This document shows, one piece after another, positions 41,142-63,624 of a stretch of DNA of 64,000 nucleotides. Origin of the DNA: Candidatus Methylomirabilota bacterium. Its GTDB lineage: Bacteria > Acidobacteriota > Thermoanaerobaculia > Thermoanaerobaculales > Sulfomarinibacteraceae. The number at the start of each line of letters is the position of its first letter. Positions within the stretch are counted from its first letter, which is position 1. Below the pieces are notes generated by a model. It had not been told where the DNA came from. It did not search any database and was given only the letters and a program-made list of their open reading frames with translations. The DNA lies in contig DATHSO010000198.1 in assembly GCA_035464095.1 (NCBI GenBank), positions 12,071 to 76,070 on the forward strand. Direction: 5' to 3'. Position numbers and translations under genes: made by a program.

Positions 41142-41144
41142 TAC

Positions 41145-45400: not shown

Positions 45401-45441
45401 TGAAACGTCTCCTCACTGCGGCGAGTTCAGGCAGCGGACCC

Positions 45442-46201: not shown

Positions 46202-46211
46202 GGTGTCCTCC

Positions 46212-47291: not shown

Positions 47292-47305
47292 GAGTTCCTC
47301 CCTCC

Positions 47306-48514
47306 CTACTCTTCGAAGATCTCGTCGTCGAAGAAGATGTACGGGTTTGTCCGGGGGTGCATGACCATCTCGGGGGCCGGGTCGAGGCCGATCTCCCCGA
47401 GGAAGTTGGACAGGCCGACCCGCTGGATGAACTCGCCCACCCGCTCGCGGTTCTTGCCGTGCTCACCCCACAGGTCCCAGATCGCCTCGGTGAGCTCCTT
47501 GAGATCCTCGTAGTCCGACTCCGGATCCATCTCCAGGAAGGGCACGAAGACCGAGCACAGGAGAGCGCCGCCGATGATCGGCGCCTTGCCGCCGATGAGA
47601 ATGGTGGCCCCGCGCTCCTTGCCGGGCTTGAGGGCCTTGGGCATCAGGTTGATGCAGTGCATGCACTTGACGCAGTTCGCGTCGTCGATGTCGAGGGTCG
47701 AGCCGTCCCACTCGATGCAGCGGGTCGGGCACAGGTCGCAGACCTCGGCCTGGACGTCGACGCCGTTCTTCGAGTACTCGACGACCTTGGCGTTGTCGAC
47801 CTGGATGTCGTCCTTCCAGACGCCGATGACGGAGCAGTCCGAGCGGGCGATGGACGCCACGCAGTCGTTCGGGCAGCCGGAGAACTTGAACTTGTACTTG
47901 TAGGGGAAGAACGGCCGGTGCAGCTCGTCCTGGAAGTTCTGGGTGATGTTGTAGCAGGCGTCCAGGGTGTCGTAGCAGGCCCACTCACAGCGCGCCGGGC
48001 CGACGCAGCAGGACGGCGTGCGCATGTTGGAGCCGGAGCCGCCGAGGTCGAAGCTCGGCATGTCGTCCTTCTCCGAGCTGAGCTCCGCGAAGAGCGGCTC
48101 GAGGGCCTCGGTCTTGCAGCCGAGGAAGACGATGTCGCCGGTGGACCCGTGCATGTTGGTCAGACCCGAGCCGTGCTTCTCCCACACGTCACAGATGTGG
48201 CGCAGCGCCTTCGTGTTGTAGAACCACGCCGACGGCTGGTTGATGCGGCAGGTGTGGAACATCTCGACGTTGGGGAAGTCTTGCGGAAGGTCGCTGTAGC
48301 GGCCGATCACGCCACCGCCGTAGCCCATCACGCCGACGATGCCGCCGTGCTTCCAGTGGCTGATGTGCTCCTCGTAGGAGCGTTCGAGGATGCCGAGCGC
48401 GTCGTTGGACATCGCGTTGTGCCCGGCCTCCTTCTTCATCTCCTTGACGAAGCTCGGCCACGGTCCCTTCTCGAGCTCGTCAAGCAGCGGCGTTTCGTGC
48501 TTCTTCACTGTCAT
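47306..48514 (-). CDS. dsrA: Dissimilatory sulfite reductase alpha subunit
   Basis: 402 aa from ATG 48514 (AAGGAG ribosome-binding site). Motifs: [21 protein letters not shown] and the ferredoxin insert CDLCPTRC / CVKCMHC. Confidence 0.95.
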
Positions 48515-48677
48515 GGCCACTCCTTTCCAATCATCATCGGACTCTGAAACTCTTCGTGACGCGAAGCCACCGCGAGGGACGGCGACGGGCTTCGGCATCT
48601 GCATCCGGTCAAGCTCGACTCCTCCTTCACATCATCGACGAGCGCCGGCGGACGACGCTCGCACCGGAGGGCAGTCT

Positions 48678-48693
48678 TGCAACCCGTGTGCCA
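48678..48693 (-). promoter_or_regulatory. Sigma-54 (-24/-12) promoter for the dsrAB... operon
   Basis: The minus strand reads TGGCACACGGGTTGCA, matching TGGCAC-N5-TTGCA. It lies about 165 nt upstream of the dsrA ATG. Confidence 0.75.
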
Positions 48694-48793: not shown

Positions 48794-50251
48794 CTAATCG
48801 TAACGGGTCGGGAGAGCGGCTCGGCCGCCGTTTCGGGATCCCCCGTCCGGGTGACTGCGACCGTCCTGCTCGGGGACCTCGATTCCGAGGCCCCGGATCT
48901 TGCGGAACAGGGTGCTCGGGTGGATGCCGAGGAGCTCGGCGGCGGCCTTCCGGTTGCCCTCGGTCCGGCGCAGGGCGTTGGCGATGTGGAGCCGCTCCAT
49001 CGCCTGCAGCGTGGTGGGCGCGCCCCCTTCGCGGCGTTCAGCTGCGCTGTCCCGGGTCAGCTCGGGCGGCAGGTGGTTGAGCTCGATGACGCTGCCGCGG
49101 CACAGCACGAAGGCGTGCTCGACGATGTTCTCGAGCTCGCGGGCGTTGCCCGGGTAGTCGTGGTTCATGAGAACCTCGAGGACCTCGTCCGAGACCCCCA
49201 CCACATCCTTCTCCTGCAGCCGGTTGAAGCGCCCGATGAAGTGGTCGATGAGCAATGGGATGTCCTCGCGCCGCTCGCGAAGCGTGGGCAGATCCAGGCG
49301 CATGACGTTGATGCGGTAGAACAGGTCCTCGCGGAAGGTTCCCTCCTTGACCAGCTCCGCCAGGTCGCGGTGGGTGGCGGCGATGACCCGGACATTCGCC
49401 GACACCGGCTCCACCGAGCCGAGCGGCTCGTAGACCTGCTCCTGGAGGACCCGCAGCAGGCGCACCTGCATGGCGGGCGAGATGTCGCCGATCTCGTCGA
49501 GGAGAATCGTGCCGCCCTCGGCGTGCGCGAAGCGCCCCGGACGGTCGTGGCGAGCGTCCGTGTAGGCACCGGCTTTGACGCCGAACAGCTCGGACTCGAG
49601 GAGGGTGTCGGGCATGGCGCCGCAGTTGATGGCCACGAAACGCTTGTCCCGGCGCGGCGAGAGGTTGTGGATGGCCCGCGCGAAGAGCTCCTTGCCGGTG
49701 CCGCTGGCGCCGTGGATGACCACCGTGCTGTCGCTGGCGGCCACCGCCGGCAGGACCCCGAACAGGTCTCGCATGGCCGCGCTGCGGCCGATGATGTCGC
49801 CCAGGGAGTAGCGCGCCTCGAGCGCCTTGCGCAGCTCCTCCACCTGGCTCAGGTCGCGGATGGTCTCCACTCCGCCCACGAGCTGACCGTGTTCGTTGCG
49901 CAGGACGGTGGTCGAGATCCTGATCGGCAGCTTGCGGCCGCGGGCGTCGATGACGAAGGCGGCCCGGTCGACCACCGGTTCGCCGGTCTCCATGGTGTGG
50001 CGGAGCGGGCAGACGCTGTTGCAGATGCTCGCCTGGAACACCTCGCAGCACCGACGCCCGATGGCCTTCTGCCTGGGAATGCCGGTGATCCGTTCGGCGG
50101 CACGGTTGAAGTAGGCGATCCGCCAGTCCCGGTCGACGGTGAACACCCCCTCGGCCACGCTGTCGAGGATGATGCGCCCGATTCCCGGCTCGTTGGCCTG
50201 CAGGGCGAGGCTCCACTGCCCCCGCTCCCGCTTCGGTTCCTGCGATGTCAT
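48794..50251 (-). CDS. PAS-domain sigma-54 enhancer-binding protein (PAS-AAA+-Fis HTH)
   Basis: 485 aa. The PAS domain carries CC-x7-C-x3-C (RRCCEVFQASICNSVCPLRH). AAA+ has GASGTGKE, LLDEIGD and a GAYTDA variant of GAFTGA. The C-terminus reads GNRKAAAELLGIHPSTLFRKIR. Confidence 0.92.
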   Translation of the reverse strand: MTSQEPKRERGQWSLALQANEPGIGRIILDSVAEGVFTVDRDWRIAYFNRAAERITGIPRQKAIGRRCCEVFQASICNSVCPLRHTMETGEPVVDRAAFVIDARGRKLPIRISTTVLRNEHGQLVGGVETIRDLSQVEELRKALEARYSLGDIIGRSAAMRDLFGVLPAVAASDSTVVIHGASGTGKELFARAIHNLSPRRDKRFVAINCGAMPDTLLESELFGVKAGAYTDARHDRPGRFAHAEGGTILLDEIGDISPAMQVRLLRVLQEQVYEPLGSVEPVSANVRVIAATHRDLAELVKEGTFREDLFYRINVMRLDLPTLRERREDIPLLIDHFIGRFNRLQEKDVVGVSDEVLEVLMNHDYPGNARELENIVEHAFVLCRGSVIELNHLPPELTRDSAAERREGGAPTTLQAMERLHIANALRRTEGNRKAAAELLGIHPSTLFRKIRGLGIEVPEQDGRSHPDGGSRNGGRAALPTRYD

Positions 50252-51666
50252 CGCGGCGCTCCCCGAGCTTCGTTGTGCGATACTTGGGCGCGGACACGAC
50301 GATGACGAGGCCCCTCCCCGACCCCCGACCGGAACCGACACCCACCCCCGGCAAGGCTCCCGAAGCCGGGCCGCTGCGCGTGCGGATCCTGAGCGCCCTG
50401 GCCGTGGCCGCTGTCGCCGCCCTCGCGGCGCCACATCTGCCTCCCCTGGGGCTCGGTGCGCTGGTGCTGGCGGCGACGCTCGCCGCGGTCTGGGTCAGCG
50501 CCCCGCCCGGTCGCGACGGCAACGGCCACCACCGGCACGTGCAGGTCCTGCGCGACGAGCTCGACGCCTCGCGCCGGCGCTACCAGCGGCTGTTCTCCTC
50601 GGTGCCCTGCTTCATCTGCGTGCTCGATCGCGACCACAACATCGTCGAGGCCAACGAGCTCTACCGGCGGGAGTTCGGCGTCACCGACCGCTCGCTGTGC
50701 TTCGAGGTCTGCAAGCAGCGCACCTCCAAGTGCCCGAACTGCATCGTCGACGCCACCTTCGCCGACGGCGTCAGCCGGGCCGCCGAGGAGATCCTGGTGG
50801 CGCGCGACGGACGGCGCATCAACGCGGTGGTCCACACCCGTCCCATCAGGGACGAGGGCGGCGAGATCACCGCGGTGATGGAGGTCTTCACCGACGTCAC
50901 CGAGGTCAAGCAGCTGCAACGCCAGCTCGCCCTCACGGGCCGCGCGGTGGCGGGGGCCGCGCACCGCGTCAAGAACATCCTGATGGGGCTCGAGGGTGGC
51001 ATCTTCATCGTCAACGACGGCCTCGAGCGCGACGACCGCGGCACCATCGACGAGGGCTGGGAGATGGTGGAGCGCAACGTCCACCGGATCACCGCCATCG
51101 TCAAGGACCTCTTGTTCACCGCCAAGGAGCGCCGGCCCTCCTTCGAGGACGAGGTCTGCCCCGAGGAGATCGTGCTCGAGGTCCGCAACCTCTATGCCCG
51201 GCGAATGGAGGGCGAGAACATCGAGGTCCTGGCCGAGGTGCCGGCCGAGCTCCACCGCGGCACCTTCGACCCCGACGCGATCCACAACCTGCTCTGCAAC
51301 CTGGTCGGCAACGCCATCGACGCCTGCCGCTTCGACCCCTCGGAGGGCAAGGACGGCCACCGGGTGGTCCTCCGCTGCTGGCAGAACGGCAACGGCGCCA
51401 CCGTCTTCGAGGTCGAGGACAACGGCGAGGGCATCCCCGAGGAGCTGACCCGGAAGGTCTTCCACGAGTTCTTCTCGTCCAAGGGCACCGAGGGCACGGG
51501 CATCGGCCTGCTGGTGGTCCAGAAGGTGGCGGAGGAGCACGGCGGCGCTGTGACCTTCCGCTCGACGCCGGGAGAGGGCACCGTGTTCACGGTCACGATC
51601 CCGGCCCATACGCCGACCGCCAAACCGGCCGATCACGGCGTTGGCAAGCTCGGCGTCCACAACTGA
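50245..51666 (+). CDS. Membrane PAS sensor histidine kinase with Cys-rich PAS domain
   Basis: 473 aa (alternative ATG at 50302). Two TM helices; PAS with C-x3-C-x7-C-x2-C (CFEVCKQRTSKCPNC); H-box AAHRVKNIL; HATPase N and G boxes (GNAIDA, GTGIGL). Confidence 0.9.
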   Translation: MSSRRSPSFVVRYLGADTTMTRPLPDPRPEPTPTPGKAPEAGPLRVRILSALAVAAVAALAAPHLPPLGLGALVLAATLAAVWVSAPPGRDGNGHHRHVQVLRDELDASRRRYQRLFSSVPCFICVLDRDHNIVEANELYRREFGVTDRSLCFEVCKQRTSKCPNCIVDATFADGVSRAAEEILVARDGRRINAVVHTRPIRDEGGEITAVMEVFTDVTEVKQLQRQLALTGRAVAGAAHRVKNILMGLEGGIFIVNDGLERDDRGTIDEGWEMVERNVHRITAIVKDLLFTAKERRPSFEDEVCPEEIVLEVRNLYARRMEGENIEVLAEVPAELHRGTFDPDAIHNLLCNLVGNAIDACRFDPSEGKDGHRVVLRCWQNGNGATVFEVEDNGEGIPEELTRKVFHEFFSSKGTEGTGIGLLVVQKVAEEHGGAVTFRSTPGEGTVFTVTIPAHTPTAKPADHGVGKLGVHN

Positions 51667-51749
51667 CCTCCAGTCCCGACACGGGCACAGCTCCATCGGC
51701 ACGGCGACCCGACGACGCTCGCGACCCGCGCCCCGGTGCTTCGGAAGGC

Positions 51750-52127
51750 TCAGGCGGCTCCGATCAGCTCCCGAACCTTGTCCAGGAACGCCCCCCGCTC
51801 GATGGGCTTCTCGACCACCGCCTCGGGCGGCCGCAGCTCACCGAGGTACCCGAAGAAGTCGTCCGACCTCGCGAGCCCCGTGAGCACGATGATCGGGATG
51901 GCCGAGGTCTTGTCCGAGGTCCGCAGACCGCGATACGCCTTGACCCCGGACTTCTTCGGCATCAGCACGTCGAGGGTGATCAGGTCGGGCTTATGGGCCT
52001 CGGCGAGCCACACCCCCTCGTCGCCGTCCGCGGCCGAGTCGGTCTCGTAGCCCGCCTTGCGGAACAGGGCTTCGAGGTACACGCGCATGTCCTTCTCGTC
52101 GTCGATAATGAGGATCTTCTTCGGCAT
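51750..52127 (-). CDS. Stand-alone CheY-like receiver protein
   Basis: 125 aa with ILIIDDE, LDVLMP and ...IVLTG...KP motifs. No output domain. Confidence 0.9.
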   Translation of the reverse strand: MPKKILIIDDEKDMRVYLEALFRKAGYETDSAADGDEGVWLAEAHKPDLITLDVLMPKKSGVKAYRGLRTSDKTSAIPIIVLTGLARSDDFFGYLGELRPPEAVVEKPIERGAFLDKVRELIGAA

Positions 52128-52151
52128 CTCTCTGACCTCCCGGTTCGCCGC

Positions 52152-52991
52152 CTAATTCTCGTACGGATGAGTGCCGAGGGCGGCCTTGGCCTCCGGAGTG
52201 CCGATGCGGCCGAGCACTTCTCGGATCGGATGGCGCAGGTTCTCGTTGTCGAGGGAACGGACGATGCAGTCCACCAGGTCGGGATCGCGCAGAGCCGCGA
52301 GCTCGTCGCCGGCACATTTGACCAGCTCTGGGTTCTTGCTTCCCAGGGCCGAGCACAGATACTCCACCGCCAGGCCTCCGGTCTCTCCGCCCTTGCGGGC
52401 GATGGTCCCGAGGGCCTTGAGCGCCTTCTCGCTGCGCTTGAAGCGACCGATGGCGCGCACTCCCCGCAGACCGCCACCGTAGGCGTCCACGAAAGCCGCG
52501 ACGGCCTCCTCGCTCTTGCGCTCCGGCTCGGCCTCGGCCTCCTTGGCCGCGTCCTCGAGGAAGGACTCGTCGGCGTAGTACTCCACCGCCATCCGGCGGA
52601 CCGCCGGGTTGTACGCCGGGTCCTCGGCGATGGACTCGATGATGCGCCGATCGGTGATCCGCGAGAAGCACATGCCGATGAGCTCGATGTTCTCCGGGGA
52701 CCTGAGCAGATCCGCCAGCACCCGCTGCGAGAACACCCGCTCCACGGCCACCAGCCGGGCGTCGAGAGACTCCGCCTCCCGCGCCACGCGCTCCAGGTTC
52801 GGGTCGTCGTTGATCTTGAGGACGGCGGTCAATCGAACCCGAGGAGAGTCGTCGGTGCACGCGATCTGCACCAACGTCTCGGGGTCGTCGAGCTTCTCGA
52901 CCGCCGCCATCCGGACCTTGGGGTTGGAGTGCTCGTGGTCCTTCTTCTCGAGGAACCTCTTCGAGCTCTTTCGCTTCTCCATGATGGTCAT
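52152..52991 (-). CDS. HEAT/PBS-lyase-like repeat protein
   Basis: 279 aa with repeated ...NPxVRxxAV.../DPxLV motifs (NPKVRMAAVEKL, SPRVRLTAVLKI, NPAVRRMAVEY). GGAGG ribosome-binding site. Confidence 0.8.
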   Translation of the reverse strand: MTIMEKRKSSKRFLEKKDHEHSNPKVRMAAVEKLDDPETLVQIACTDDSPRVRLTAVLKINDDPNLERVAREAESLDARLVAVERVFSQRVLADLLRSPENIELIGMCFSRITDRRIIESIAEDPAYNPAVRRMAVEYYADESFLEDAAKEAEAEPERKSEEAVAAFVDAYGGGLRGVRAIGRFKRSEKALKALGTIARKGGETGGLAVEYLCSALGSKNPELVKCAGDELAALRDPDLVDCIVRSLDNENLRHPIREVLGRIGTPEAKAALGTHPYEN

Positions 52992-53089: not shown

Positions 53090-53458
53090 TCAGTCACCGG
53101 GTTCTCCCAACGCACGTTCCACCGTCGCCACGAACTCGTCGGGATCGATGGGCTTGTCGAAGACCGCGAACGGTTTGCTGACCGCCAGGTGCCGGCCCGC
53201 GAGACCGCTGACCACGATGACCGGGATCCCCCGCAGGGCATCCTGCTTGAGCAGGCGGCGGTAGAAGTCGGTTCCTGTCTGCTCGGGCATCTGCAGGTCG
53301 AGCACGATGAGGTCGGGCGGCTCCTTTTCGGCCGCGTCGAAGGCCTGGCGGCCGTCTCGTGCGGTCGCCACCCTGTAGCCGTTCTTCTCGAGCACCCTGC
53401 TGAGGAAGGCACGGACATCCGGCTCGTCGTCGACAACCAGGACCAAGTGACTCATCAC
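53090..53458 (-). CDS. Stand-alone CheY-like receiver protein
   Basis: 122 aa with VLVVDDE, LDLQMP and ...VVSG...KP motifs. The start overlaps the stop of the small upstream ORF. Confidence 0.9.
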   Translation of the reverse strand: MMSHLVLVVDDEPDVRAFLSRVLEKNGYRVATARDGRQAFDAAEKEPPDLIVLDLQMPEQTGTDFYRRLLKQDALRGIPVIVVSGLAGRHLAVSKPFAVFDKPIDPDEFVATVERALGEPGD

Positions 53459-53619
53459 GGCCTCCGATCTTGCGGCGTGCGGTCGTTGCCGAAGGCGCTC
53501 CGGCGTTCACGCTCGGTCAGGAACCGCCAGAACGGGATGTAGCTCACCAGCAGCAGCCCGGCGACGATGTAGCCGACGGCCTTGGTGTGGGTCAGGAAAT
53601 CGAAAAGAGTGTACATCAT
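53455..53619 (-). CDS. hmcD: Small single-TM protein, HmcD-like by position
   Basis: 54 aa (MMYTLFDFLTHTKAVGYIVAGLLLVSYIPFWRF...). It is too short for the ORF track and starts 6 nt after the hmcC-like stop. The assignment rests on position and size only. Confidence 0.5.
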   Translation of the reverse strand: MMYTLFDFLTHTKAVGYIVAGLLLVSYIPFWRFLTERERRSAFGNDRTPQDRRP

Positions 53620-53625
53620 CCCCCC

Positions 53626-54816
53626 TCAGTGGACGCCTTTCCAGTCGGGATGCTCGTACATGATGGGCATCCGGTTCGCGATCCAGCGGAAGACCACGAC
53701 GGCGAAGGTGATGAACGCCACCGTCACCCAGATCTCCATCCAGCTCGGGACATAGCTCTGGCCGGCCGGCAGGTTCCAGTTGAACGCGACGAAGGTGATG
53801 TTGAAGCGGTTGAGCATGATGCCGATGACGGTGATGACCGCCGCCACCCGAGCCAGGGTCAGCCGGCGCTCCCGGTAGGCGACCGTGAACAGCAGGCAGG
53901 GCAGCAGCACGAAGCCGAGAAGCTCGACCAGGAACCAGGCGCCCCAGCCGGTGGCCAGCAGCTGCCACTCGTCCTCGGTGGCCAGGCCCACCATCTTGAT
54001 GGCGAAGTAGACGCCGAGGGTGACCGCAGCTCCCTTGGCGAGACCGAAGTTGATGGACGCGAAGCGGTCCTGGCTGATCTGGACCTGGTGGTGGAAGGCA
54101 CGGTGGGAGATCATCCCCTCGACGATCACCATGGCCAGCCCGGCCGCCACCGCCGACACGAAGAAGTGCACCGGAATGTGCGAGGAGTACCACAACGGGT
54201 GGAGCCTCGTGGGCGCAACCATGTACATCGCGCCGAGGGTGGACTGGTGCATGGTCGACAGGATCAGGCCCAGGATGGTGAGGGCGATGGTCATGCTGCC
54301 GACGAGCTTGCGCCACCACTTGAGGCCCAACCACTCGAAGACCGCCGGGGTCGATTCGATGAACAGCACGGTCAGGTACAAGGCGACGCACAGCGCGACC
54401 TCGAACAGAGGCGACGTCGGACCGGCCGACTTGATGAACGGGTACGGAAGCCGCCATGGCCGACCGAGGTCGGCGAGCAGTCCGAGCACGACCAGGAAGT
54501 AGCCCAGGAACCCGGTCAGCAGCGCTGCCCGGACGATGGGCTTGTACTCCTTCATGCCGAACAGGTAGACCGCGCTCGAGGTGACGAAGCCGCCGGCGGC
54601 CAGGGCGACGCCGCTCATGACATCGAAGCCGATCCACAGCCCCCAGGGATAGGTGTGACTGAGGTTGGTGGTCGCCGCCAGGCCCTGGGTGAAGCGAATC
54701 CCGAGGATCGCCGCTCCCCCGGCGAGGATGATGCCGGCGATCACGTTGAACGGGGTGAGGAGACCACTCCTGCCCCAGATGGTCGGCGAGGCGGCATCCA
54801 TGGTGACGTCGGTCAT
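53626..54816 (-). CDS. hmcC: HmcC-like NrfD/HybB-family membrane subunit
   Basis: 396 aa, about 10 TM helices. AAAGGAGG ribosome-binding site. The start overlaps the hmcB-like stop. Confidence 0.85.
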   Translation of the reverse strand: MTDVTMDAASPTIWGRSGLLTPFNVIAGIILAGGAAILGIRFTQGLAATTNLSHTYPWGLWIGFDVMSGVALAAGGFVTSSAVYLFGMKEYKPIVRAALLTGFLGYFLVVLGLLADLGRPWRLPYPFIKSAGPTSPLFEVALCVALYLTVLFIESTPAVFEWLGLKWWRKLVGSMTIALTILGLILSTMHQSTLGAMYMVAPTRLHPLWYSSHIPVHFFVSAVAAGLAMVIVEGMISHRAFHHQVQISQDRFASINFGLAKGAAVTLGVYFAIKMVGLATEDEWQLLATGWGAWFLVELLGFVLLPCLLFTVAYRERRLTLARVAAVITVIGIMLNRFNITFVAFNWNLPAGQSYVPSWMEIWVTVAFITFAVVVFRWIANRMPIMYEHPDWKGVH

Positions 54817-55850
54817 CACTCGCCTCCTTTCTGCGCCTCGGCAAGGGCCTTCTTCACCGCCATGTCGATGGCCTTCTGCTTGTCCTTGGCGGCGCGGTCG
54901 GCGGCCGAGGCGAGCTTTTGCTGCGTCACCTCCTCGGCTGCCGCCAGCGCCCGGGCCACCGACTCCTCGCGCTCGGCGGCCGACACCGCCTCGCGGCGCT
55001 TGCTGAAGGCGTACATCCCGAGCAGCAGTCCGGGGTAGATGGTGATCACGAGCGGCACGACCCCGAGGTACGAGGTGGCGATCGCCGGCAGCGGCTCCGT
55101 GGTGAGGCCCTCCTCGAGGTCGAGCTGCCCGAAGGGAACCCCCGACAGCACCAGCCAGCTGGTGCCGCCGAACTCGTGCTCGCCGAAGATGTGGTCGACG
55201 TAACGGTCGGGGAACTTGCGGATCCGCTCTCTGGCGACGCGGATCAGGTCCTCCCGCCGGCCGAAGGTGATGGCGCCCATGGGGCAGGCCTCGGCGCAGC
55301 CGGGCTGCTTGCCCTCCAGGATCCGGTCGTAGCACATGGTGCAGCGCATGACCTTCGGGGTCAGCGGGTCCTCGTACTCGTATGCCAGAGCGTAGTACGG
55401 GCACGCCATGACGCAGTAGCGGCACCCCATGCACAGCTCGGGGTGGTAGAGGACCGGACCCTCCGGGGTCTTCTCGAAGGCGTGGCAGGGGCACACGGTG
55501 GCGCAGCAGGGCTCGTTGCAGTGCATGCACTGGAGCTTGCGGTACACCGGGGCCCGGTCACCATCGGCCTCGAGGTACCGGTTGACCACGGTCAGCGAGG
55601 TGTCCGTCGTCCGGCGGACCGAGTCGAAGACTGCAGGATCGTCCAAGGGCTCGGCCACCGGAGGCAGCCCGTTGACCTCCTTGCAGGCGGCCTCGCACGA
55701 GCGGCAGCCGACGCACAGGGTGGTGTCGTGGAGCAGACCGTACCGTCCGGGGTGACCCTCGAAGTGCCTGACGGTGCCGGCTTCCGCTGTTGCAGCAGCG
55801 GCCGCGGACCCGAGGGCGCCGCCGATGAAGCCTCGACGCGTCAAGGTCAT
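54816..55850 (-). CDS. hmcB: HmcB-like Tat-exported poly-ferredoxin with C-terminal membrane anchor
   Basis: Tat motif TRRGFIGG. Cluster motifs CVGCRSCEAAC, CMHCNEPCCATVCP, CMGCRYCVMACP and CTMCYDRI...CAEACP, followed by one TM helix and a Lys/Ala-rich tail. Confidence 0.88.
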   Translation of the reverse strand: MTLTRRGFIGGALGSAAAAATAEAGTVRHFEGHPGRYGLLHDTTLCVGCRSCEAACKEVNGLPPVAEPLDDPAVFDSVRRTTDTSLTVVNRYLEADGDRAPVYRKLQCMHCNEPCCATVCPCHAFEKTPEGPVLYHPELCMGCRYCVMACPYYALAYEYEDPLTPKVMRCTMCYDRILEGKQPGCAEACPMGAITFGRREDLIRVARERIRKFPDRYVDHIFGEHEFGGTSWLVLSGVPFGQLDLEEGLTTEPLPAIATSYLGVVPLVITIYPGLLLGMYAFSKRREAVSAAEREESVARALAAAEEVTQQKLASAADRAAKDKQKAIDMAVKKALAEAQKGGE

Positions 55851-57358
55851 GAGATTTCCTCCTTCGCAGCATGGCAGTCGGTGCAGCCGGCTTTCAGACC
55901 CAGCCGTTGGTGGCAGCTGACGCACTGCCGGTGGTACGCGACCATCAGGGACGGTGCATCGCTGGTCGCCGCGGCCGTCGCGCCGTGGCACGACGCGCAG
56001 CGCGGCGGGCGCTCGCCCACCGGACTGTGGTGGTGGCAGCCCGCGCACATGGCCTCCGGCGAGCTGTGGAACCGTTTTGCCAACGGGTTGGTGCGGATGC
56101 CCTCGTCGAAGCGGCGGATGATCTTGAGGTGGGGAAAGCTCGATCCCTGGTAGGTGTCCGCGAGGACATCGATGGTGAGCACCTCGGGCAGATCGTCCGA
56201 TGCGCCGGGCAACGGCTCGAAGGTCACAGGCGGCAGCGCACCGTCGGTAGCGGGCGGCAGATCCTCGAGGCGGGGATCCGGCCCGTTGTGACAGATCGCA
56301 CAACCCCTGGCCTGCAGGCTCGCGACGGTGGTGTCGAGGTGGCACCCGGCGCAGTCGCCACGCTCCGCGGCAAGGCGGTGACACCCGGCGCAGCTCAGGG
56401 AGGACCTGCGATCGTGGTGGGCGTCCATGAGACTGACGCCTCCCCCGTCGGCGCCGGGCTGCGGGTTGTGGCAGTCGGCACAAGCCTTCAGGCGCTGGTG
56501 GTGGCAGCTCGAGCACGAGGAGGCCTGGCCCTCGTGGAGTGCGTGGTTGAAGGGCACCACCGGCAAGCGCGCGCCCGGCGACTTGACCCACGCGATGTCG
56601 GGTTGGCCGCGTTTGAGCCTGGGCACCTCGGCGAGCCTCTCGATGGCGGCGACCTGATCCGGGTCGTGACAGCCGTCGCAGCCTACCGGACCGGCCTTGA
56701 CGGAGCGCCCGGCGCGCTCGAGGTGGCAGGCCACGCAGTCCCGGTGGACGGCGTCCCGCAGCGATGGCGTGTCGCCGACGGCGATCTCGCCGTGGCAGTT
56801 CCGGCAGGCCTCCTCGGTGTCCTCGCGGTACACCAGCTTCTGGCTCGCCTCGTCCCACACGTGGTGGCAGGTCTCGCACTTGTCCGGGTAGGCGTTCATG
56901 TGGCGGGCGTGGAGCGACAGGTCGAAGGCCAAAGGGTGCCGGACCGAGACCCCGGGCGGCCGGCGCACGTGGCACTCGCCACAGGTGACGGGTCCGGAAG
57001 CCTGCTGCCCCGCGTCGAGGCGACGCTGGTGGCAGCCGATGCACGCGTCGTGGTAGGCGTCCGTCAACGCGTCGCGCCCGTCGGCGGCGGCGACCGCCGC
57101 GAGGCCGGGATGGAAGCCCTCGTCATCCACCCGGTGGCAGACTTCACAGCCCTCGACCACGAGCGCTTCCGTGTGGCGCGCGTGGTCGAACTCCACCACC
57201 GGCCGCTGCAGCTCCCCGCCGAACGGGAGCCGGCCGATCTCCACAACCGACGGCCCGGTCACTCTCAGCGCCGACCTGTCGGCAGCGCCGGACGGCACGG
57301 CCGCGACGACGATGACCGCCAGGACCAGACTCGAAACCAGGATCGTGTGTCGCGTCAT
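55847..57358 (-). CDS. hmcA: HmcA-like 16-heme high-molecular-weight cytochrome c
   Basis: 503 aa with a signal peptide. Sixteen CxxCH motifs counted by hand in the translation. Confidence 0.9.
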   Translation of the reverse strand: MTRHTILVSSLVLAVIVVAAVPSGAADRSALRVTGPSVVEIGRLPFGGELQRPVVEFDHARHTEALVVEGCEVCHRVDDEGFHPGLAAVAAADGRDALTDAYHDACIGCHQRRLDAGQQASGPVTCGECHVRRPPGVSVRHPLAFDLSLHARHMNAYPDKCETCHHVWDEASQKLVYREDTEEACRNCHGEIAVGDTPSLRDAVHRDCVACHLERAGRSVKAGPVGCDGCHDPDQVAAIERLAEVPRLKRGQPDIAWVKSPGARLPVVPFNHALHEGQASSCSSCHHQRLKACADCHNPQPGADGGGVSLMDAHHDRRSSLSCAGCHRLAAERGDCAGCHLDTTVASLQARGCAICHNGPDPRLEDLPPATDGALPPVTFEPLPGASDDLPEVLTIDVLADTYQGSSFPHLKIIRRFDEGIRTNPLAKRFHSSPEAMCAGCHHHSPVGERPPRCASCHGATAAATSDAPSLMVAYHRQCVSCHQRLGLKAGCTDCHAAKEEIS

Positions 57359-57372
57359 GGTTGTCCAACCCC

Positions 57373-58692
57373 TCATGCTTCGGGCATCTCGATGGTCTTG
57401 ACCAGCAGCTCGCTGATGAACGACACGTGGCAGCCAAGCTTGTAGAAGCCGATGATGTCCTCGATCCCGGAGTGGCAGTTGTGGCACGGGGTGATCACCA
57501 GGTGGGCGCCGGTGTCGTGGATCTGCTCGGCCTTGATGCGGTTGCTCTTCATGCGCGAGCGCTTCCACGGCGGCCCGCAGTTGATCAGCCCGCCGCCCGC
57601 CTGGCAGCAGTAGTTGTGCTCGTCGTGGGGCTCCATGTCGCGGAAGTCGGAGCAGATCGCGTTGACCACGTAGCGGAGCTTGTCGTGGAGGCCGCGGCCG
57701 CGGACGATGTTGCACGGGTCCTGCACCGTGACCGGCTCCTCGATCTTGCGGGCGATCTTGAGCCGGCCGCTCTTGATGATCTCGTAGTAGTACTCCACTG
57801 CGTGGACCATCGGGATCGGCGGTTTCGTCCAGCCGAGCCAGCGCGGCCCGTCGTAGACCGCGCCCCGGTAGGCGTGGCCGCACTCGCCCATGACCACCCG
57901 CTTGACTCGCAGCTCGGCCGCCCGCTCCCAGTGCAGGCGCTCGACCCGGCCCATGGTCTCGAAGTCGCCCGAGTACATGGCCATGTTGGAGTTGTCCCAG
58001 CCGTCGGTGGACGGCATGGTCCAGTCGGCGCCCACGACCTTGAAGATGATCGCCATGTTGGCGATCAGCTGGGCGAGGATCTTGGGCTCCGGCCCGATCA
58101 CCGAGTACATGATGTCGGCCCCCTCCCTGTCGAGGGGAATCCGGGTCCCGGCGAGCTCGGCCCGGGCGTCCTCCTCCTGCCACATGAGGGTGTCGATCCA
58201 GTCGTCCTGCTGGACCCACATCTGGTTCATGGTGGCGGCGTGGCTGTTGGTGGTGTCCTGGAGGTACTGGGGCACCACCCCGAGCAGGTTGAGAATCCTG
58301 CGCACCGTCATGATCATGTACGAGATGTCGATGCCGAAGGGGCAGTACATGCTGCACCGGCGGCACGCCCCGCACTCGAGGAAGGCGATCCGGGCCGCGT
58401 TGTGGAGGAACTCGCCGTCCACCTTGCCCTCTCGCCTCACCATCTCCCACAGGGTGTCCTTGACCTTGGCCACCGGCGCGAAATCGGGGTCCTTGTCGCG
58501 CGAGATGTAGCTCTGACAGGACTCGGCGCACAGGCCGCAGTGGACGCAGGTGTCGAGGTACACCTGGAGCCGGGCCGCCGCCTCCTCGGTCAGCACGCGG
58601 TTGATGGTCCGCTCGATCCGCTCCGGCGTCAGCTTGGCGATGTTGTCGTCGACCCCGGGGTCGATGACCTTCATGTCCTCGAGATCAGCCAT
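57373..58692 (-). CDS. hmcF: HmcF-like HdrD-type cytoplasmic Fe-S (CCG-domain) protein
   Basis: 439 aa from ATG 58692 with CVHCGLCAESC and CGACRRCSMYCP plus CCG motifs (VQDPCN, YCCQAGGG, ITPCHNCH). Confidence 0.88.
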   Translation of the reverse strand: MADLEDMKVIDPGVDDNIAKLTPERIERTINRVLTEEAAARLQVYLDTCVHCGLCAESCQSYISRDKDPDFAPVAKVKDTLWEMVRREGKVDGEFLHNAARIAFLECGACRRCSMYCPFGIDISYMIMTVRRILNLLGVVPQYLQDTTNSHAATMNQMWVQQDDWIDTLMWQEEDARAELAGTRIPLDREGADIMYSVIGPEPKILAQLIANMAIIFKVVGADWTMPSTDGWDNSNMAMYSGDFETMGRVERLHWERAAELRVKRVVMGECGHAYRGAVYDGPRWLGWTKPPIPMVHAVEYYYEIIKSGRLKIARKIEEPVTVQDPCNIVRGRGLHDKLRYVVNAICSDFRDMEPHDEHNYCCQAGGGLINCGPPWKRSRMKSNRIKAEQIHDTGAHLVITPCHNCHSGIEDIIGFYKLGCHVSFISELLVKTIEMPEA

Positions 58693-58734
58693 GGTGTGTG
58701 TCCCCCGTCGCGTGCAGCTCACTGAGTCGTTGCA

Positions 58735-59382
58735 TCACCAGTCCCTGGAGTGGCGGACTGCGCCGAACTCGCTGCCCATGTAGGCCCGCGTGAAGGGAAA
58801 CCAGAGCATGTGGACGAGACGGGTCCACGGGATGGCGAGCAGCCAGAGGGCGCCGGTGAAGGCGTGGATGATGATCATGGTGCGGTAGGGCAGCCACTGC
58901 TGGGCGGCGATGAAGCCGGTCGCGAAGGGAGCGGCCACGAGCAGCGCGATCACGAAGTCGGACGGGTAGCTGACGTTCCGGACCTCGGGTTTGACGAGCC
59001 GCCGCACCATGAAGAACACGGCCCCGAAGATGACGATCAGGGTCATGACGTCGGCGACCCCGTCGGGCAGGCTCCACCACCGGACGCCCCAGGCCTGCTG
59101 GAACAGGACCGTGTGACCCATCACGAACAGCGGGGTGACGATCAGGCAGACGTGGAAGGCGAAGGACACCAGGGTGAAGAGCGGACGCTTCCGGGTGCTC
59201 GCCCCGCCGAAGGGGAGCACCCAGTGCGCCAGCGACCGTAGGCCGTACTTGGCGCTCAGGGTCGGGATCACAACCCGCTCCCGCTTGGCGAGCTTCGCCA
59301 TGGTCACGAATCGGTAGAGCAGACCGCCGAAGAAGCCGACGAAGGCGATCCAGACCAGCGGGCCGCTGACGAACTCCACCAT
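58735..59382 (-). CDS. hmcE: HmcE-like NarI/HdrE-type b-cytochrome membrane subunit
   Basis: 215 aa with 5 TM helices and conserved His residues (AHWVLP, FHVCL, IIHAF, VHML). GGAGG ribosome-binding site. Confidence 0.82.
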   Translation of the reverse strand: MVEFVSGPLVWIAFVGFFGGLLYRFVTMAKLAKRERVVIPTLSAKYGLRSLAHWVLPFGGASTRKRPLFTLVSFAFHVCLIVTPLFVMGHTVLFQQAWGVRWWSLPDGVADVMTLIVIFGAVFFMVRRLVKPEVRNVSYPSDFVIALLVAAPFATGFIAAQQWLPYRTMIIIHAFTGALWLLAIPWTRLVHMLWFPFTRAYMGSEFGAVRHSRDW

Positions 59383-59396
59383 GTTTCCTCCCCCGG

Positions 59397-60665
59397 TCAC
59401 TTCGAGAACCCGCGGGCCGTGTCGACCACCTGGCGGATGAAGGTGTCGTCCTCGACGGCGCGGACCAACATCCGCGAGCCGTCGGGGCTGAAGATGGGAT
59501 CCCACAGCCTGTCGAACCAAGGGCTCCACGGGCGGCCGTCGACGGCGATGGCGAAGCGCCCGTCCCGCTCGACCTTGGCCGCCAGCCGCCCGCCGTCGGG
59601 CGAGAAGACCGGATCCCAGACCATGTCGTAGTCCTCCGGCCACGGCCGGTCGTCGACGGCGATGCCCCACCGGTCATGGTCCCGCACCGCGACCGCCACC
59701 CGGTCACCGCCGGGGCCGAAGACCGGCTCCCGCACCATATCGTCGAACGAGGACCGCCACGGCCGGTCGTCGACGACCACCGTCCAGCGCCCGAAGTCAC
59801 GGGCCGCCACGGCGGCGATCCGCGAGCCGTCGTCGCTCAGACGCTGATTCCACAGCTGCATGAAACGGCTCGTCCAGATCGGGTCGCCGTTTTCGGCGAT
59901 GGTCCACGACCCGGCCAGCCGAACCGGCGCCAGCAGGCGGCTGCTGCCGTTACGGTAGGCGGGCTCCCACACGCAGCCGAAGCGCTGCTCCCAGGGCACC
60001 CCGTTCTCGGCCAGGGTGTACTCGCAGATGTCGAGACGGACCTCGGCGGCGACCCGGCCACCGTCCTCGCTGATGGTCGGGGCATAGGCGTTGACGAAGG
60101 TCCGGTCCCAGGGTTCGCCGTTGACGGCCACGCTCCAGGTCCCGTTCATGAAGCCGGAGATGTCGGCCTCGGCCAGGGGCACCACCTGCACCACCGCGGC
60201 CACGTCGCGGCCGTCGGGGCTCACCGCCAATCCGCGCGACGAGTGGAAGCGCCGCTCCCAGGCCTCGCCGTCGACGGCGACGGTGTACTCCATGTTGTCC
60301 TTGATCTGGACCGCGATGACCCTGCCGTCGCGGCTGAACCGAGGGTTCCAGGCGAACTCCCACCGGTTCTCCCAGGGCTCGCCCTCCACCGCCACCGTCC
60401 ACTCGTCGTCGATCCGCACCAGGGCCGTCAGTCGGCCGTCCGGGGTGAAGGCCAGGTGCCACGCCTTTTCGAACTCGCCCTCCCAGCGCTCGCCGTTGAC
60501 CGCCACCGAGAAGGTGTCCGGCTCGGTGAGCACCGGTGCGGCGAGGCGCTCGCCGTCGGGGCTCACCGACCACTCGTGGACCTCCTCGAAACGGTCGCGA
60601 AACGATCGGAGATCGCAGACCGATCGTCTGCCGGTGCTCCAATCCCACGTCTCGATGTCGACCAT
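59397..60665 (-). CDS. Tryptophan-rich repeat protein (TmcD-like), about 10 tandem units of about 38 aa
   Basis: 422 aa from ATG 60665 (AAGGGAG ribosome-binding site). The repeat consensus is F-x3-W-x-P-x-FSPDG-x-R-x-A-x-V-x3-D-x-W-T-V-A-V-D-G-x-P-W. About 25 Trp counted by hand. Confidence 0.8.
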   Translation of the reverse strand: MVDIETWDWSTGRRSVCDLRSFRDRFEEVHEWSVSPDGERLAAPVLTEPDTFSVAVNGERWEGEFEKAWHLAFTPDGRLTALVRIDDEWTVAVEGEPWENRWEFAWNPRFSRDGRVIAVQIKDNMEYTVAVDGEAWERRFHSSRGLAVSPDGRDVAAVVQVVPLAEADISGFMNGTWSVAVNGEPWDRTFVNAYAPTISEDGGRVAAEVRLDICEYTLAENGVPWEQRFGCVWEPAYRNGSSRLLAPVRLAGSWTIAENGDPIWTSRFMQLWNQRLSDDGSRIAAVAARDFGRWTVVVDDRPWRSSFDDMVREPVFGPGGDRVAVAVRDHDRWGIAVDDRPWPEDYDMVWDPVFSPDGGRLAAKVERDGRFAIAVDGRPWSPWFDRLWDPIFSPDGSRMLVRAVEDDTFIRQVVDTARGFSK

Positions 60666-60990
60666 GGAACGGCTCCCTTCGTTGCCCGCCGCGAGCCCCG
60701 TTGCGGGACGTCGTGCGCTGGCAGCCTTCAGAGCAACGGTCATGCCACGGTCGGCGCGAGCCGCCAGGTTCTTGCTAAGGCGTGTGTTTCATGTATGATA
60801 GGCCGCCGAGGCCGAAGCGGGGGGCGCTCCAGACCACAGCAAAATGCAACTCTAGGCCCGTGCGGGTGCTCGCATTCTGCTATGGTCGATCGACACTCTC
60901 CGGACGAGTGCGTGCACGACTGCGCGGCGAGCGCGACGCTCCGATCGGCGGACGCAGATCGCAGCGGCCTCGAACACGGCGAGAATCGCG

Positions 60991-61024
60991 GAAATCAAAG
61001 GGCGGCCCCCGATCGGGGGCCGCC
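60991..61024 (-). terminator. Rho-independent terminator after the third HdrD-like gene
   Basis: Perfect 24-nt palindrome GGCGGCCCCCGATCGGGGGCCGCC (61001-61024), followed on the minus strand by CTTTGATTTCC. Confidence 0.65.
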
Positions 61025-61087: not shown

Positions 61088-62692
61088 CTAGTGCCACTCC
61101 CAGTCGATGAAGCCGGGCTGGGCGTCGACCATGGCGTTGACGATGAGCTCGACGAGACCGCCGTAGTAGATGCCGGCCTTCTCCCAGGCATCGTAGTAGT
61201 TGATGATGTCCCGGATCTGCCCTTTGCAGTTGGAGCATGGGGCACAGACGTACTTGGGGTGCTCCTTGTCCATGGGTTCGTCCTGGAAGGCCTCGAGGAT
61301 CTGCCGGAACTTCCGGCGGCCGGTCATGCGGTGGCGCCAGTCCTGGAAGTTGTGGCCCGACATGATGGCGAAGCCGGAGCCGCCGCCGCAGCAGTAGTTC
61401 TCGACGCCGTGGGGCGCCATCTCGCGGAAGCGGCCGGGGGGCAGGACGGCCTCGAGGATCTCGCGCTGGGGGGTCACGACGCCCATCAGCCGCACCAGGT
61501 TGCAGGGGTCGTGGAGGGTCACCGGAAAGTCGTTGCGACTCGGGTCGAGCTTGAGCTTGCCCGAGCGGACGATGTCGCGCAGGGTGACCATGGAGCTCTC
61601 GCGCGGGATGTTGAGGTCGCCGGTGAGGACCTTGTCGGCGATGACGGTGAGGGCCTTGTGGGCGTGGCCGCACTCGCCGAGGACGATCTTCTTGACCCCG
61701 AGCTTCTTGGCGATCATGGCGTGACGGACCGCGACCCGCGCGAACTGGACGTCGTCGTACCAGACCCCGTAGTTGATCCCGTCGTAGCCGATGGCGTCGG
61801 ACGACAGCGTCCAGCTGAGCCCCGCCGCCTCGAAGACCGTCGCGAAGGCGCCGGGGTTCTCGGGCCAGGCCATGATCTCGCCGGCGTTGTGGATGAGCAG
61901 GATGTCCGCCCCCTCGACGTCGAACGGGGTCTCGATGGGGATGCCGGTGCGCTCGGCGGTGTCCTCGTCGATGAACTCGATGTTGTCCTTGACGATCATC
62001 GGCGTCATGCCGGTGGACGAGCCGACCGCGAGCTGGAGGACCGAGCCGTCCTTGTGGATCTCGCGCGGCACGATGCCCATCTCCATACTGGCGATCTTCC
62101 GGATCTCCCGCGACAGCAGCGCGTTGTCGGCGCCGATCGGACAGGTCTGGGCGCAGCGGCGGCACAGGTTGCAGCGGTAGCTGAGCTCGATGAGCCGGGC
62201 CACCGTCTCCCAGTTGAGGTCGATGTCACCGTGGACCGCCGGCGACGCCTTCTTGACGTACTTGAAGTAGATGCGGCGCAGGATCTCGGAGCGGTAGATC
62301 GGGCGGTAGAGCTCGTTCTCGCCGCTCTCTTGGAAGATCGGGCAGGCGTCGGAGCAGGTCTGGCAGCGGGCGCAGTGCTCCATGGACATCTCGAAGGGCT
62401 GGAGGAAGGTCCAGTTGTCGTCGACGCTGAACAGCTTCTCGAGGCCGCTCAGGAAGCCGTTGACGAGGCGCTCCTCGTCCTCCCTGGTCTTGGGCTTCTC
62501 GATATTGACCGCGATGGTGTCGTCGAGCACCACGTACTTCTCGCGCGCTTCCGCGGAGAGCTGGCCGAACTCGGGCTCCTCGTCGAGCTTGTCGAAGGGC
62601 GGCGGCAGCGGGATCTGCTCGAACTGGTTGATCTGGGCGAGGGGCTCGCCCCGGTGCTTCCCGAGGTCTTTGACGCTGTCAGGCTGTTTCAT
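61088..62692 (-). CDS. HdrD/DsrK/TmcB-like cytoplasmic Fe-S (CCG-domain) oxidoreductase
   Basis: 534 aa with CARCQTCSDACP and CNLCRRCAQTCP plus CCG motifs (LHDPCN, YCCGGGSG, CAPCSNCKGQ). The ATG overlaps the upstream stop (ATGA). Confidence 0.88.
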   Translation of the reverse strand: MKQPDSVKDLGKHRGEPLAQINQFEQIPLPPPFDKLDEEPEFGQLSAEAREKYVVLDDTIAVNIEKPKTREDEERLVNGFLSGLEKLFSVDDNWTFLQPFEMSMEHCARCQTCSDACPIFQESGENELYRPIYRSEILRRIYFKYVKKASPAVHGDIDLNWETVARLIELSYRCNLCRRCAQTCPIGADNALLSREIRKIASMEMGIVPREIHKDGSVLQLAVGSSTGMTPMIVKDNIEFIDEDTAERTGIPIETPFDVEGADILLIHNAGEIMAWPENPGAFATVFEAAGLSWTLSSDAIGYDGINYGVWYDDVQFARVAVRHAMIAKKLGVKKIVLGECGHAHKALTVIADKVLTGDLNIPRESSMVTLRDIVRSGKLKLDPSRNDFPVTLHDPCNLVRLMGVVTPQREILEAVLPPGRFREMAPHGVENYCCGGGSGFAIMSGHNFQDWRHRMTGRRKFRQILEAFQDEPMDKEHPKYVCAPCSNCKGQIRDIINYYDAWEKAGIYYGGLVELIVNAMVDAQPGFIDWEWH

Positions 62693-63624
62693 TTCTTCTG
62701 GTCCTCCAAGGTCACGTCGAGCCAGCTCTTCTTGCCGTCGGCATTGATGTGCGGCGCCGACCACGAGACCGGCCTCGAAAGAAGCTCCTGGATGGTCGCC
62801 TCCTGCTTGCCGCCGGGCAGGTTCGGTTCGTCCGACCAGCGGATGGCATGGTAGGCGAAGTACTTGCCGATGAAGTGCGACATGTGGGTGGTGGGGATGT
62901 AGGCGACCAGCAGCGCCAGCAGCACCACCGACAGGCTCAGCAGGAGACCGGCGGTGCCGGCGCCGACCGGCGCCAGGTTGAAGGTCACCAGGTTGGTGAC
63001 GAAGGCGGCGACCAGGGAGAAGTCCCGGTCGTAGCCCAGGAACATCACAGTGGCCACGCCGAAGGCGACGATGAAGAAGAGCAGGTTGAAGAGGTCGGCG
63101 GGCGCGGTGTAGTCCCTCAGCGAGCGGCTCCGGCGGCGCAGGAACAGGCCGATGGCGCCGACGATGCCGAGCACCAGGCCGGCGCCCGCGATGAACGGGA
63201 TCACGGCGCCGATGACCTTGCCCCCCGGCTCGGCGACAGAAGCCGGCAGGTAGCCGACGACGAGGCCGCCGAGCAGCAGCAGCGCGGTCGCCCCGCCCAC
63301 CAGGTAGAGCCCGAAGTGAAACGGGAAGGAGCGCGTCCACAGCTTCCGGTTGTGCTCACGCAGAGCGACCAGGAACAGGATCTCGGGCACCATGACCTTG
63401 AGCTCGCCGACCAGCGAGACCTCGCGCTTCTTGGTCCACCAGTCGCTCTCCTCGAGGTACGATCCCCCGTATGCGGCCTTGCCGCCGCCCTCATGCGCCA
63501 CGGGATAGAGCTCCCATCTCACGTGCATGGGCATCTTCGACCACATGAAAAAGCGGGCCACGCACGCCACCAGGAAGAAGACGATGCCGACGTAGGCGAC
63601 GATATAAGCGAGAGTAGTCATCAT
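62689..63624 (-). CDS. NarI/DsrM/TmcC-like b-cytochrome membrane subunit
   Basis: 311 aa from ATG 63624 (GAGGTG ribosome-binding site) with 5-6 TM helices and a cytoplasmic tail (...HINADGKKSWLD). Confidence 0.82.
   Translation of the reverse strand: MMTTLAYIVAYVGIVFFLVACVARFFMWSKMPMHVRWELYPVAHEGGGKAAYGGSYLEESDWWTKKREVSLVGELKVMVPEILFLVALREHNRKLWTRSFPFHFGLYLVGGATALLLLGGLVVGYLPASVAEPGGKVIGAVIPFIAGAGLVLGIVGAIGLFLRRRSRSLRDYTAPADLFNLLFFIVAFGVATVMFLGYDRDFSLVAAFVTNLVTFNLAPVGAGTAGLLLSLSVVLLALLVAYIPTTHMSHFIGKYFAYHAIRWSDEPNLPGGKQEATIQELLSRPVSWSAPHINADGKKSWLDVTLEDQKK

Follow-up and report, generated by a model that had tools for sequence, protein, structure and literature searches.

Hmc and Tmc are the textbook routes by which periplasmic electrons reach cytoplasmic sulfite reduction, and they are treated as separate complexes, each defined in Desulfovibrio. 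The locus considered here, on the minus strand of a 64,000-nucleotide (nt) stretch of acidobacterial DNA (the window; positions 12,071 to 76,070 of contig DATHSO010000198.1, assembly GCA_035464095.1), raises the question of which of the two it encodes. A preliminary description, made from the sequence alone, had read positions 53455-60665 of the window as a full set of six Hmc-type components in the permuted order hmcE-hmcF-hmcA-hmcB-hmcC-hmcD, headed by a tryptophan-rich gene otherwise known from Tmc, and had called the whole a hybrid Hmc/Tmc transmembrane redox module. We find that the unit is a tmc operon in which hmcABCD fills the slot of the tetrahaem cytochrome gene tmcA, and which lacks hmcEF.

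Subunit identities and gene order

The minus strand between 53455 and 60665 carries seven consecutive co-directional open reading frames (ORFs), and the gene for a stand-alone receiver overlaps the last of them by 4 nt (Table 1). All reading frames of the operon are intact. The genes are separated by 14 nt (tmcD/tmcC), 42 nt (tmcC/tmcB), 14 nt (tmcB/hmcA) and 6 nt (hmcC/hmcD), or overlap by 4 nt (hmcA/hmcB), 1 nt (hmcB/hmcC) and 4 nt (hmcD/receiver). The alternative hmcA start would turn the tmcB/hmcA gap into a 4-nt overlap, and a Shine-Dalgarno-like sequence, GAGGGG, lies ahead of the start at 57358. The seven genes, the 16-haem cytochrome and the tight packing (overlaps of 1-4 nt, gaps of 6-42 nt) had therefore been described correctly, coordinates included.

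Table 1. Features of the window in and around the tmc-hmcABCD operon, from the upstream neighbour to the gene just past dsrP. Coordinates within the dsr cluster are those of stop-to-stop reading frames. aa, amino acids; TM, transmembrane segment; Tat, twin-arginine translocation.
Feature	Position	Strand	Remarks
b-Cytochrome and CCG-protein pair	61088-63624	minus	best model DsrK, 327 bits (cut-off 400)
Intrinsic terminator	61001..61024	minus	10-bp all-GC stem followed by a T-rich tail, CTTTGATTTC; closes the upstream DsrMK-like pair
Sigma-54-type (-24/-12) promoter candidate	60732..60747	minus	TGGCATGACCGTTGCT; 66 nt before the tmcD ATG
tmcD	59397-60665	minus	422 aa, 25 Trp (5.9%), without signal peptide; first gene of the operon
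tmcC	58735-59382	minus	215 aa, polytopic NarI/DsrM-like membrane b-cytochrome, several hydrophobic segments; previously called hmcE
tmcB	57373-58692	minus	439 aa, cytoplasmic HdrD/DsrK-like CCG iron-sulfur protein; previously called hmcF
hmcA	55847-57358 (alternative start 57376)	minus	signal peptide, exactly 16 CxxCH motifs; periplasmic cytochrome c
hmcB	54816-55850	minus	344 aa, Tat motif TRRGFIGG, four Cys clusters, C-terminal TM at 253-283
hmcC	53626-54816	minus	396 aa, NrfD-family integral membrane subunit, about 10 hydrophobic segments
hmcD	53455-53619	minus	54 aa, single-TM subunit
Stand-alone receiver (DVU0259/DivK-like)	53090-53458	minus	122 aa; translationally coupled to hmcD through a 4-nt overlap
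HEAT-repeat protein	52152-52991	minus	no family match
Second receiver, DVU0259-like	51750-52127	minus	conserved neighbour
PAS histidine kinase	50245-51666	plus	conserved neighbour
PAS/sigma-54 enhancer-binding protein	48794-50434	minus	conserved neighbour
dsrA	47306-48631	minus	
dsrB	46212-47462	minus	
GltD/DsrL-like NAD(P)-binding iron-sulfur protein	43658-45412	minus	
dsrN	42231-43712	minus	
TPR protein	41145-41942	minus	
dsrC	40824-41144	minus	
dsrM	38924-39937	minus	
dsrK	37301-38923	minus	
dsrJ	36919-37329	minus	
dsrO	36068-37300	minus	
dsrP	34918-36090	minus	
CoA-disulfide-reductase-like pyridine nucleotide-disulfide oxidoreductase	33181-34917	minus	directly downstream of dsrP; 314 bits (cut-off 579)

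Subunit identities were scored with curated NCBIfam equivalog profiles, each against its own cut-off. The product of the first gene matches the TmcD profile (NF045725) at 533 bits (cut-off 440) over profile positions 2-411 of 412, which identifies the tryptophan-rich protein as a true TmcD. Its AlphaFold2 model, with a predicted local distance difference test score (pLDDT) of 95, is an all-β, multi-bladed propeller; a PDB sequence search with TmcD gave no match, and a fold search with the model returned generic multi-bladed β-propellers only (best TM-scores about 0.5, to eIF3b and sortilin) and no functional clue. As modelled, TmcD is a cytoplasmic, Trp-rich β-propeller subunit.

The second product scores 283 bits on the TmcC profile (NF045723, cut-off 240) against 185 bits on that of HmcE (cut-off 275), and the third 700 bits on the TmcB profile (NF045724, cut-off 735) against 402 bits on that of HmcF (cut-off 750). 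A canonical hmc locus used for calibration (L116, in GCA_030145055.1, with the order hmcA-B-C-D-E-F-Usp-RR-RR-HK-Rrf2, where RR is a receiver gene and HK a histidine kinase gene) gives the reciprocal result: its HmcE reaches 362 bits on the HmcE model and 182 bits on the TmcC model, and its HmcF 927 bits on the HmcF model and 346 bits on the TmcB model. Judged by these profiles, the genes that had been called hmcE and hmcF belong to the TmcC and TmcB families. Further evidence for TmcB comes from a tree computed by neighbor joining from Kimura distances over 433 columns, with DsrK as the root and 100 bootstraps, in which all TmcB sequences, whether from canonical tmc operons or from operons of the window's type (hereafter hybrid), form a clade with HmcF outside it (100/100 bootstraps). 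Within that clade TmcB from canonical operons is monophyletic (100/100), as is TmcB from hybrid operons (84/100), and the window protein falls in the sister group to canonical TmcB, with 53-62% identity to the latter and 39% to HmcF.

The ligand residues are intact. In TmcB two CxxCxxCxxxC motifs, the GECGH cysteine and the CCG-domain cysteines, and in TmcC the histidines H77, H90, H173 and H191, are invariant across hybrid and canonical sequences; the GECGH cysteine has been described as a probable catalytic residue common to DsrK, TmcB and HmcF (PMC10861901). TmcB from the hybrid clade scores 700-724 bits on the TmcB model, compared with 813 for one canonical TmcB, and 2,684 relatives of it are found in the database at E <= 1e-50; a PDB sequence search with TmcB gave a weak match only.

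The four genes that follow are of Hmc type. The hmcA product scores 455 bits on the HmcA profile (NF045713, cut-off 400), and its residues 43-504, that is, the full length, match the solved Desulfovibrio Hmc cytochromes 2e84, 1gws and 1h29 with E values of 1e-88 to 1e-90. The nine-haem model (NF045784) reaches 128 bits (cut-off 640) and covers the C-terminal half only (residues 268-505), and the TmcA model gives a one-domain match only, at 113 bits (cut-off 114). The hmcB product scores 398 bits on HmcB (NF045715, cut-off 420), with HybA next at 208 (cut-off 263), the hmcC product 539 bits on HmcC (NF045714, cut-off 550) together with a match to Pfam NrfD, and the hmcD product 51 bits on HmcD (NF045712, cut-off 34); Pfam PF28260 (DVU_0533) is present in the HmcD orthologues of related loci. 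In another hybrid locus (L035) HmcB and HmcC pass their cut-offs, at 505 and 650 bits. The Qrc models lie far below theirs (QrcC 69 bits, cut-off 400; QrcD 109, cut-off 570), and on Dsr models the operon's subunits reach 205 bits for DsrK (cut-off 400), 92 for DsrO (cut-off 200) and 17 for DsrM (cut-off 300). The components are thus not assigned to Nhc or Qrc, in libraries that contained no Ohc profile. HmcA to HmcD are of Hmc type, as the preliminary description had them, with 16 haem motifs in HmcA and with HmcB, HmcC and HmcD as the best profile matches by a wide margin; of its six Hmc components only HmcE and HmcF fall away. Its term hybrid for this Hmc/Tmc transmembrane redox module is supported.

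Within hybrid HmcA the TmcA model finds its best match in the first cytochrome domain (residues 54-137 in the window, 113 bits; 102 bits in L035), and in a canonical HmcA in the second (91 bits). The difference hints, weakly, that hybrid HmcA may have its TmcA-like docking domain at the N terminus.

Gene order leads to the same identification of the operon. In all 12 canonical tmc loci recovered from metagenomes the genes are transcribed as tmcD-tmcC-tmcB-tmcA, tmcA being a 4-haem ORF of 129-177 aa, and a receiver gene comes next in most of them. The order in the window is therefore the native tmc order with tmcA replaced by hmcABCD, and a permuted Hmc is the wrong frame in which to read it; in canonical Hmc the order is A-B-C-D-E-F (L116), whereas the b-cytochrome and CCG genes of the window precede hmcA. 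Apart from hmcA itself, the only multihaem gene found in the 64-kb window is dsrJ, so that neither a tmcA-like nor any 4-haem gene is present, and none of the hybrid loci has a gene of HmcE/F type after hmcD. In the order b-cytochrome, CCG protein, c-cytochrome, iron-sulfur protein and NrfD protein, tmcC-tmcB-hmcA-hmcB-hmcC is collinear with dsrM-K-J-O-P. The receiver scores 129 bits on the DVU0259-type profile NF045717 (cut-off 160). Such receivers are placed after tmcA in canonical tmc loci, after hmcD or hmcC in hybrid loci, and after canonical hmcF and a Usp gene; we rejected the receiver as a Tmc-specific marker because of this last placement.

Conservation and transcription of the operon

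A genome scan with TmcD recovered 32 species-representative Acidobacteriota loci (L001-L032), nearly all of them in metagenome-assembled genomes (MAGs) labelled Thermoanaerobaculia, Thermoanaerobaculales, Ca. Sulfomarinibacteraceae or Holophagae. Every locus of sufficient length has the order tmcD-C-B-hmcA-B-C-D-RR-HEAT-RR, followed by a histidine kinase on the opposite strand and then a sigma-54 activator, and most have a DsrMK-like pair upstream. A metagenome scan with the TmcD profile, in which classes were counted among readable loci, yielded about 30 hybrid loci in addition to the 12 canonical ones and a single locus (L108) without a cytochrome after tmcB. Where the cytochrome of a hybrid locus is readable, it has 16 haem motifs, with a single exception that has 15. 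Hybrid loci range from 40 to 70% in GC content, and closer inspection confirmed the arrangement in three MAGs, labelled Zixibacteria, Desulfomonilaceae and 'Deltaproteobacteria', and in a 3.98-Mb contig. The cluster is far beyond chance, the same order being present in all related loci of sufficient length, and the TmcD gene is co-conserved with the operon throughout.

Some loci depart from the common pattern in their details. In L109 (4907-13005) hmcA-B-C-D lies directly upstream of tmcD-C-B, in L056 (20-1440) hmcD lies directly upstream of tmcD, and in the 3.98-Mb contig and the Desulfomonilaceae MAG (L117, L119) hmcD stands between hmcA and hmcB. The subunits of the one operon have evolved at very different rates: across L001-L032 identity to the window is 87-95% for TmcB and 76-92% for the upstream DsrK-like protein, and only 46-60% for HmcA. 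In two Sulfomarinibacteraceae MAGs (L031 and L032; 10001-11269) TmcD is 42-46% identical to that of the window, compared with 71-93% for TmcC and TmcB, and TmcC is split in L031; TmcD could have been replaced or be fast-evolving there, or the assemblies could have frameshifts or other problems.

The operon appears to be bounded as one unit. A strong intrinsic terminator, just past the stop codon of the 61088 gene, marks the upstream boundary of the operon, and the sigma-54-type promoter candidate before tmcD has one mismatch to TGGCAC-N5-TTGCW. Elements with 0-1 mismatches to this consensus lie 30-75 nt upstream of tmcD in 35 loci, all in the window's clade, for a background of about 1.7% per 250 nt. 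No minus-strand terminator was predicted inside the operon. The upstream terminator, the sigma-54 element and the lack of an internal terminator together argue that tmcD leads the unit and is transcribed along with it, not on its own; it sits behind the candidate promoter and is present in all loci. The genes tmcD-tmcC-tmcB-hmcA-hmcB-hmcC-hmcD-receiver are probably a single, sigma-54-dependent transcription unit. Two perfect consensus sites (TGGCAC-N5-TTGCA) also occur on the minus strand of the window, one at 48678-48693, between the gene of the sigma-54 enhancer-binding protein and dsrA, and one at 40596-40611, about 700 nt upstream of dsrM. Taken with the site before tmcD, these consensus matches suggest that dsr and tmc-hmc may belong to one sigma-54 regulon.

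One complex or two

With HmcABCDEF of Desulfovibrio, a complex reportedly described by Rossi et al. in 1993, the window shares HmcA with its 16 haems, HmcB, HmcC and HmcD in that order and a DVU0259-type receiver downstream, which comes directly after hmcD in the window, whereas in L116 both hmcF and a Usp gene precede it. Unlike Hmc, it has no HmcE or HmcF and carries a Tmc-type b-cytochrome and CCG module upstream of hmcA, plus TmcD, and its subunits are only 36-56% identical to canonical Hmc subunits. DsrMKJOP has the same module order and presumed substrate, DsrC, but it is built from different families, with 3 haems where the window has 16, and the window has TmcD and HmcD in addition. 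The Tmc complex of Desulfovibrio vulgaris Hildenborough, TmcABCD (Pereira et al., 2006, as cited in PMC5109826 and PMC10861901), has in common with the window the orthologues TmcD and TmcC, the order D-C-B-cytochrome-receiver, the CCG and GECGH residues of TmcB and a proposed role in passing periplasmic electrons to DsrC; the window differs in having no tetrahaem TmcA, with a 16-haem cytochrome, HmcB, HmcC and HmcD in its slot, and in a TmcB that belongs to a sister clade and scores slightly under the equivalog cut-off. Nhc of D. desulfuricans and D. piger, whose operon has been described as a simplified Hmc (PMC4215793), has a four-gene module of the same layout, made up of cytochrome, iron-sulfur protein, NrfD protein and small subunit, whereas its cytochrome has 9 haems instead of 16 and the window's operon includes a cytoplasmic CCG module.

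Related arrangements are on record. Operons of tmc type without TmcA occur in Seep-SRB1a and Seep-SRB1g and have been read as adapted to another periplasmic donor (Murali et al., 2023, PMC10553843); the main text of that paper makes no mention of HmcA, a 16-haem cytochrome or NrfD. Desulfococcus multivorans carries complete tmc and hmc operons in tandem, with all ten genes (PMC5109826). A description of a tmcDCB-hmcABCD unit without tmcA and hmcEF was not found in the literature searched, and a prior mention is possible. Each part belongs to a family already known, and complexes of this kind can be expected to exchange modules.

We think it rather likely that the one operon specifies one transmembrane redox system joining an Hmc-type periplasm-facing half to a Tmc-type cytoplasm-facing half. 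The first half would comprise the 16-haem HmcA, the Tat-exported HmcB, the NrfD-type HmcC and the small HmcD, and the second TmcC (a dihaem b-cytochrome), TmcB (a CCG/noncubane-cluster protein) and TmcD (a β-propeller). The absence of HmcE/F and the homology between the families suggest that the Tmc module replaces the HmcE/HmcF of Desulfovibrio. HmcA would exchange electrons with a pool of periplasmic cytochrome, hydrogenase or formate dehydrogenase, the membrane would be crossed by way of the HmcB clusters and the haems b of TmcC, and HmcC may interact with quinone or translocate ions. On the cytoplasmic side the GECGH cysteine and CCG cluster of TmcB would reduce (or oxidise) a trisulfide or disulfide of DsrC, a substrate suggested by the conservation of the catalytic residues and by the neighbouring dsr cluster, and would in this way serve DsrAB, encoded about 5 kb away. 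The data show which genes these are, their order, where the operon begins and ends, their co-conservation and the intact ligand residues; assembly into one complex, the direction of electron flow, the DsrC substrate and sigma-54 control are what we infer.

Several points weigh against a single complex of this composition. Biochemical support for co-assembly of the seven products was not found, and HmcABCD has the four-subunit architecture of Nhc, which works without cytoplasmic subunits. HmcB, HmcC and TmcB score narrowly under their equivalog cut-offs, and so have diverged from the characterised proteins. A tree of TmcC and HmcE, with bootstraps of 7-41, gives no resolved placement, so that the identity of TmcC rests on its profile scores. 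The sigma-54 element is a consensus match only and was not found in more distant hybrid loci. Finally, an Nhc-like HmcABCD next to a TmcBCD of the known TmcA-less kind (PMC10553843) could be two separate complexes.

This last alternative, two complexes from one operon, is clearly the less probable one, though it merits real weight. HmcABCD would then be an Nhc/Qrc-like cytochrome c:menaquinone oxidoreductase and TmcBCD a DsrMK-like menaquinol:DsrC oxidoreductase, the two coupled through menaquinone, and co-transcription would do no more than keep them in step. Besides the Nhc layout of HmcA to HmcD, the TmcA-less operons of L108 and Seep-SRB1a/g speak for it, as does the position of hmcABCD genes upstream of tmcD in L109 and L056, which suggests that the blocks are separable modules; HmcC belongs to the NrfD family, which includes quinone-interacting subunits. 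Yet the blocks adjoin in every readable locus of the hybrid TmcB clade and lie no more than 14 nt apart in the window, and the hybrid TmcB clade is distinct from the canonical one, as expected from co-evolution with a different periplasmic partner. Moreover, the b-cytochrome of canonical Tmc and Hmc takes its electrons from a periplasmic cytochrome module. Gene-level data cannot separate one complex from two quinone-coupled modules, and electrons could flow in either direction.

The reading of the preliminary description, a true Hmc merely permuted to E-F-A-B-C-D that had acquired a TmcD gene, is very improbable. HmcE and TmcC, like HmcF and TmcB, are homologous families, the window proteins do reach 185 and 402 bits on the HmcE and HmcF models, and the TmcC/HmcE tree offers no resolution; but the Tmc models score higher for both proteins, true HmcE and HmcF behave reciprocally, HmcF is kept outside the TmcB clade by every bootstrap replicate and is the more distant from the window protein in identity, and the gene order is native to tmc. 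A third reading has the blocks adjoin by chance, or survive from a decaying tmcDCBA-hmcABCDEF tandem, with no joint function. Losing tmcA and hmcEF from a ten-gene tandem of the D. multivorans type (PMC5109826) would indeed yield the layout, but this reading deserves scarcely any credence: the reading frames are intact, ligand residues are conserved, TmcB keeps its high identity across Acidobacteriota species, different phyla and loci of widely differing GC content retain the arrangement, and hybrid TmcB is a deep clade and not a recent offshoot of canonical TmcB.

Evolutionary setting and neighbouring genes

Whichever way the products assemble, the Hmc and Tmc families look like modules of a single system that can stand in for one another. 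The collinearity with DsrMKJOP might carry a further meaning: TmcDCB-HmcABCD could be a distinct, ancient seven-subunit respiratory complex, perhaps near the ancestor of canonical Tmc and Hmc, a proposal that we regard as speculative and on balance doubtful. Were it true, Tmc would have arisen by loss of HmcBCD and shortening of the cytochrome, and Hmc by relocation of the b-cytochrome and CCG genes and loss of TmcD; the complex would also be the main route by which sulfur-cycling bacteria other than the classical sulfate reducers, for instance Acidobacteriota and Zixibacteria, connect electrons from the periplasm or from outside the cell with DsrC. The unit would in that sense supply a concrete candidate for the origin of Hmc and Tmc from a Dsr-like layout.

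For marine and sediment Acidobacteriota of the Thermoanaerobaculia / Ca. Sulfomarinibacteraceae lineage, whose energy metabolism is otherwise inferred from dsr genes only, the operon is a likely DsrC-linked point of electron entry. Public records, those of NCBI included, name TmcB of the hybrid clade only '(Fe-S)-binding protein' or 'Fe-S oxidoreductase' (P0291-P0409). With this generic name and a score just below the NCBIfam cut-off of 735, the subunit is missed by automated annotation, and metabolic reconstructions from MAGs will miss the complex.

A complete dsrAB-dsrN-dsrC-dsrMKJOP cluster lies nearby on the minus strand (34918-48631), and this dsr content fits the dsr-bearing marine Acidobacteriota (Flieder et al., 2021). 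On the other side of the operon, the b-cytochrome and CCG-protein pair was considered as a source of the missing HmcEF and rejected: its CCG protein scores 327 bits on DsrK against 172 bits on HmcF, and a terminator separates the pair from tmcD. The pair may be a third module of the DsrMK/HmeCD-like kind; its CCG protein is conserved as given above, and most related loci show the same linkage to the tmc-hmc operon.

The regulatory neighbours at 48794-52991 occur in the same order in all long Acidobacteriota loci and are rearranged in L033 and L052. The HEAT-repeat gene and the second receiver stay with the operon despite such rearrangement; those of L033 lie in a divergent operon with a DsrMK-like pair, a kinase and an Rrf2 regulator.

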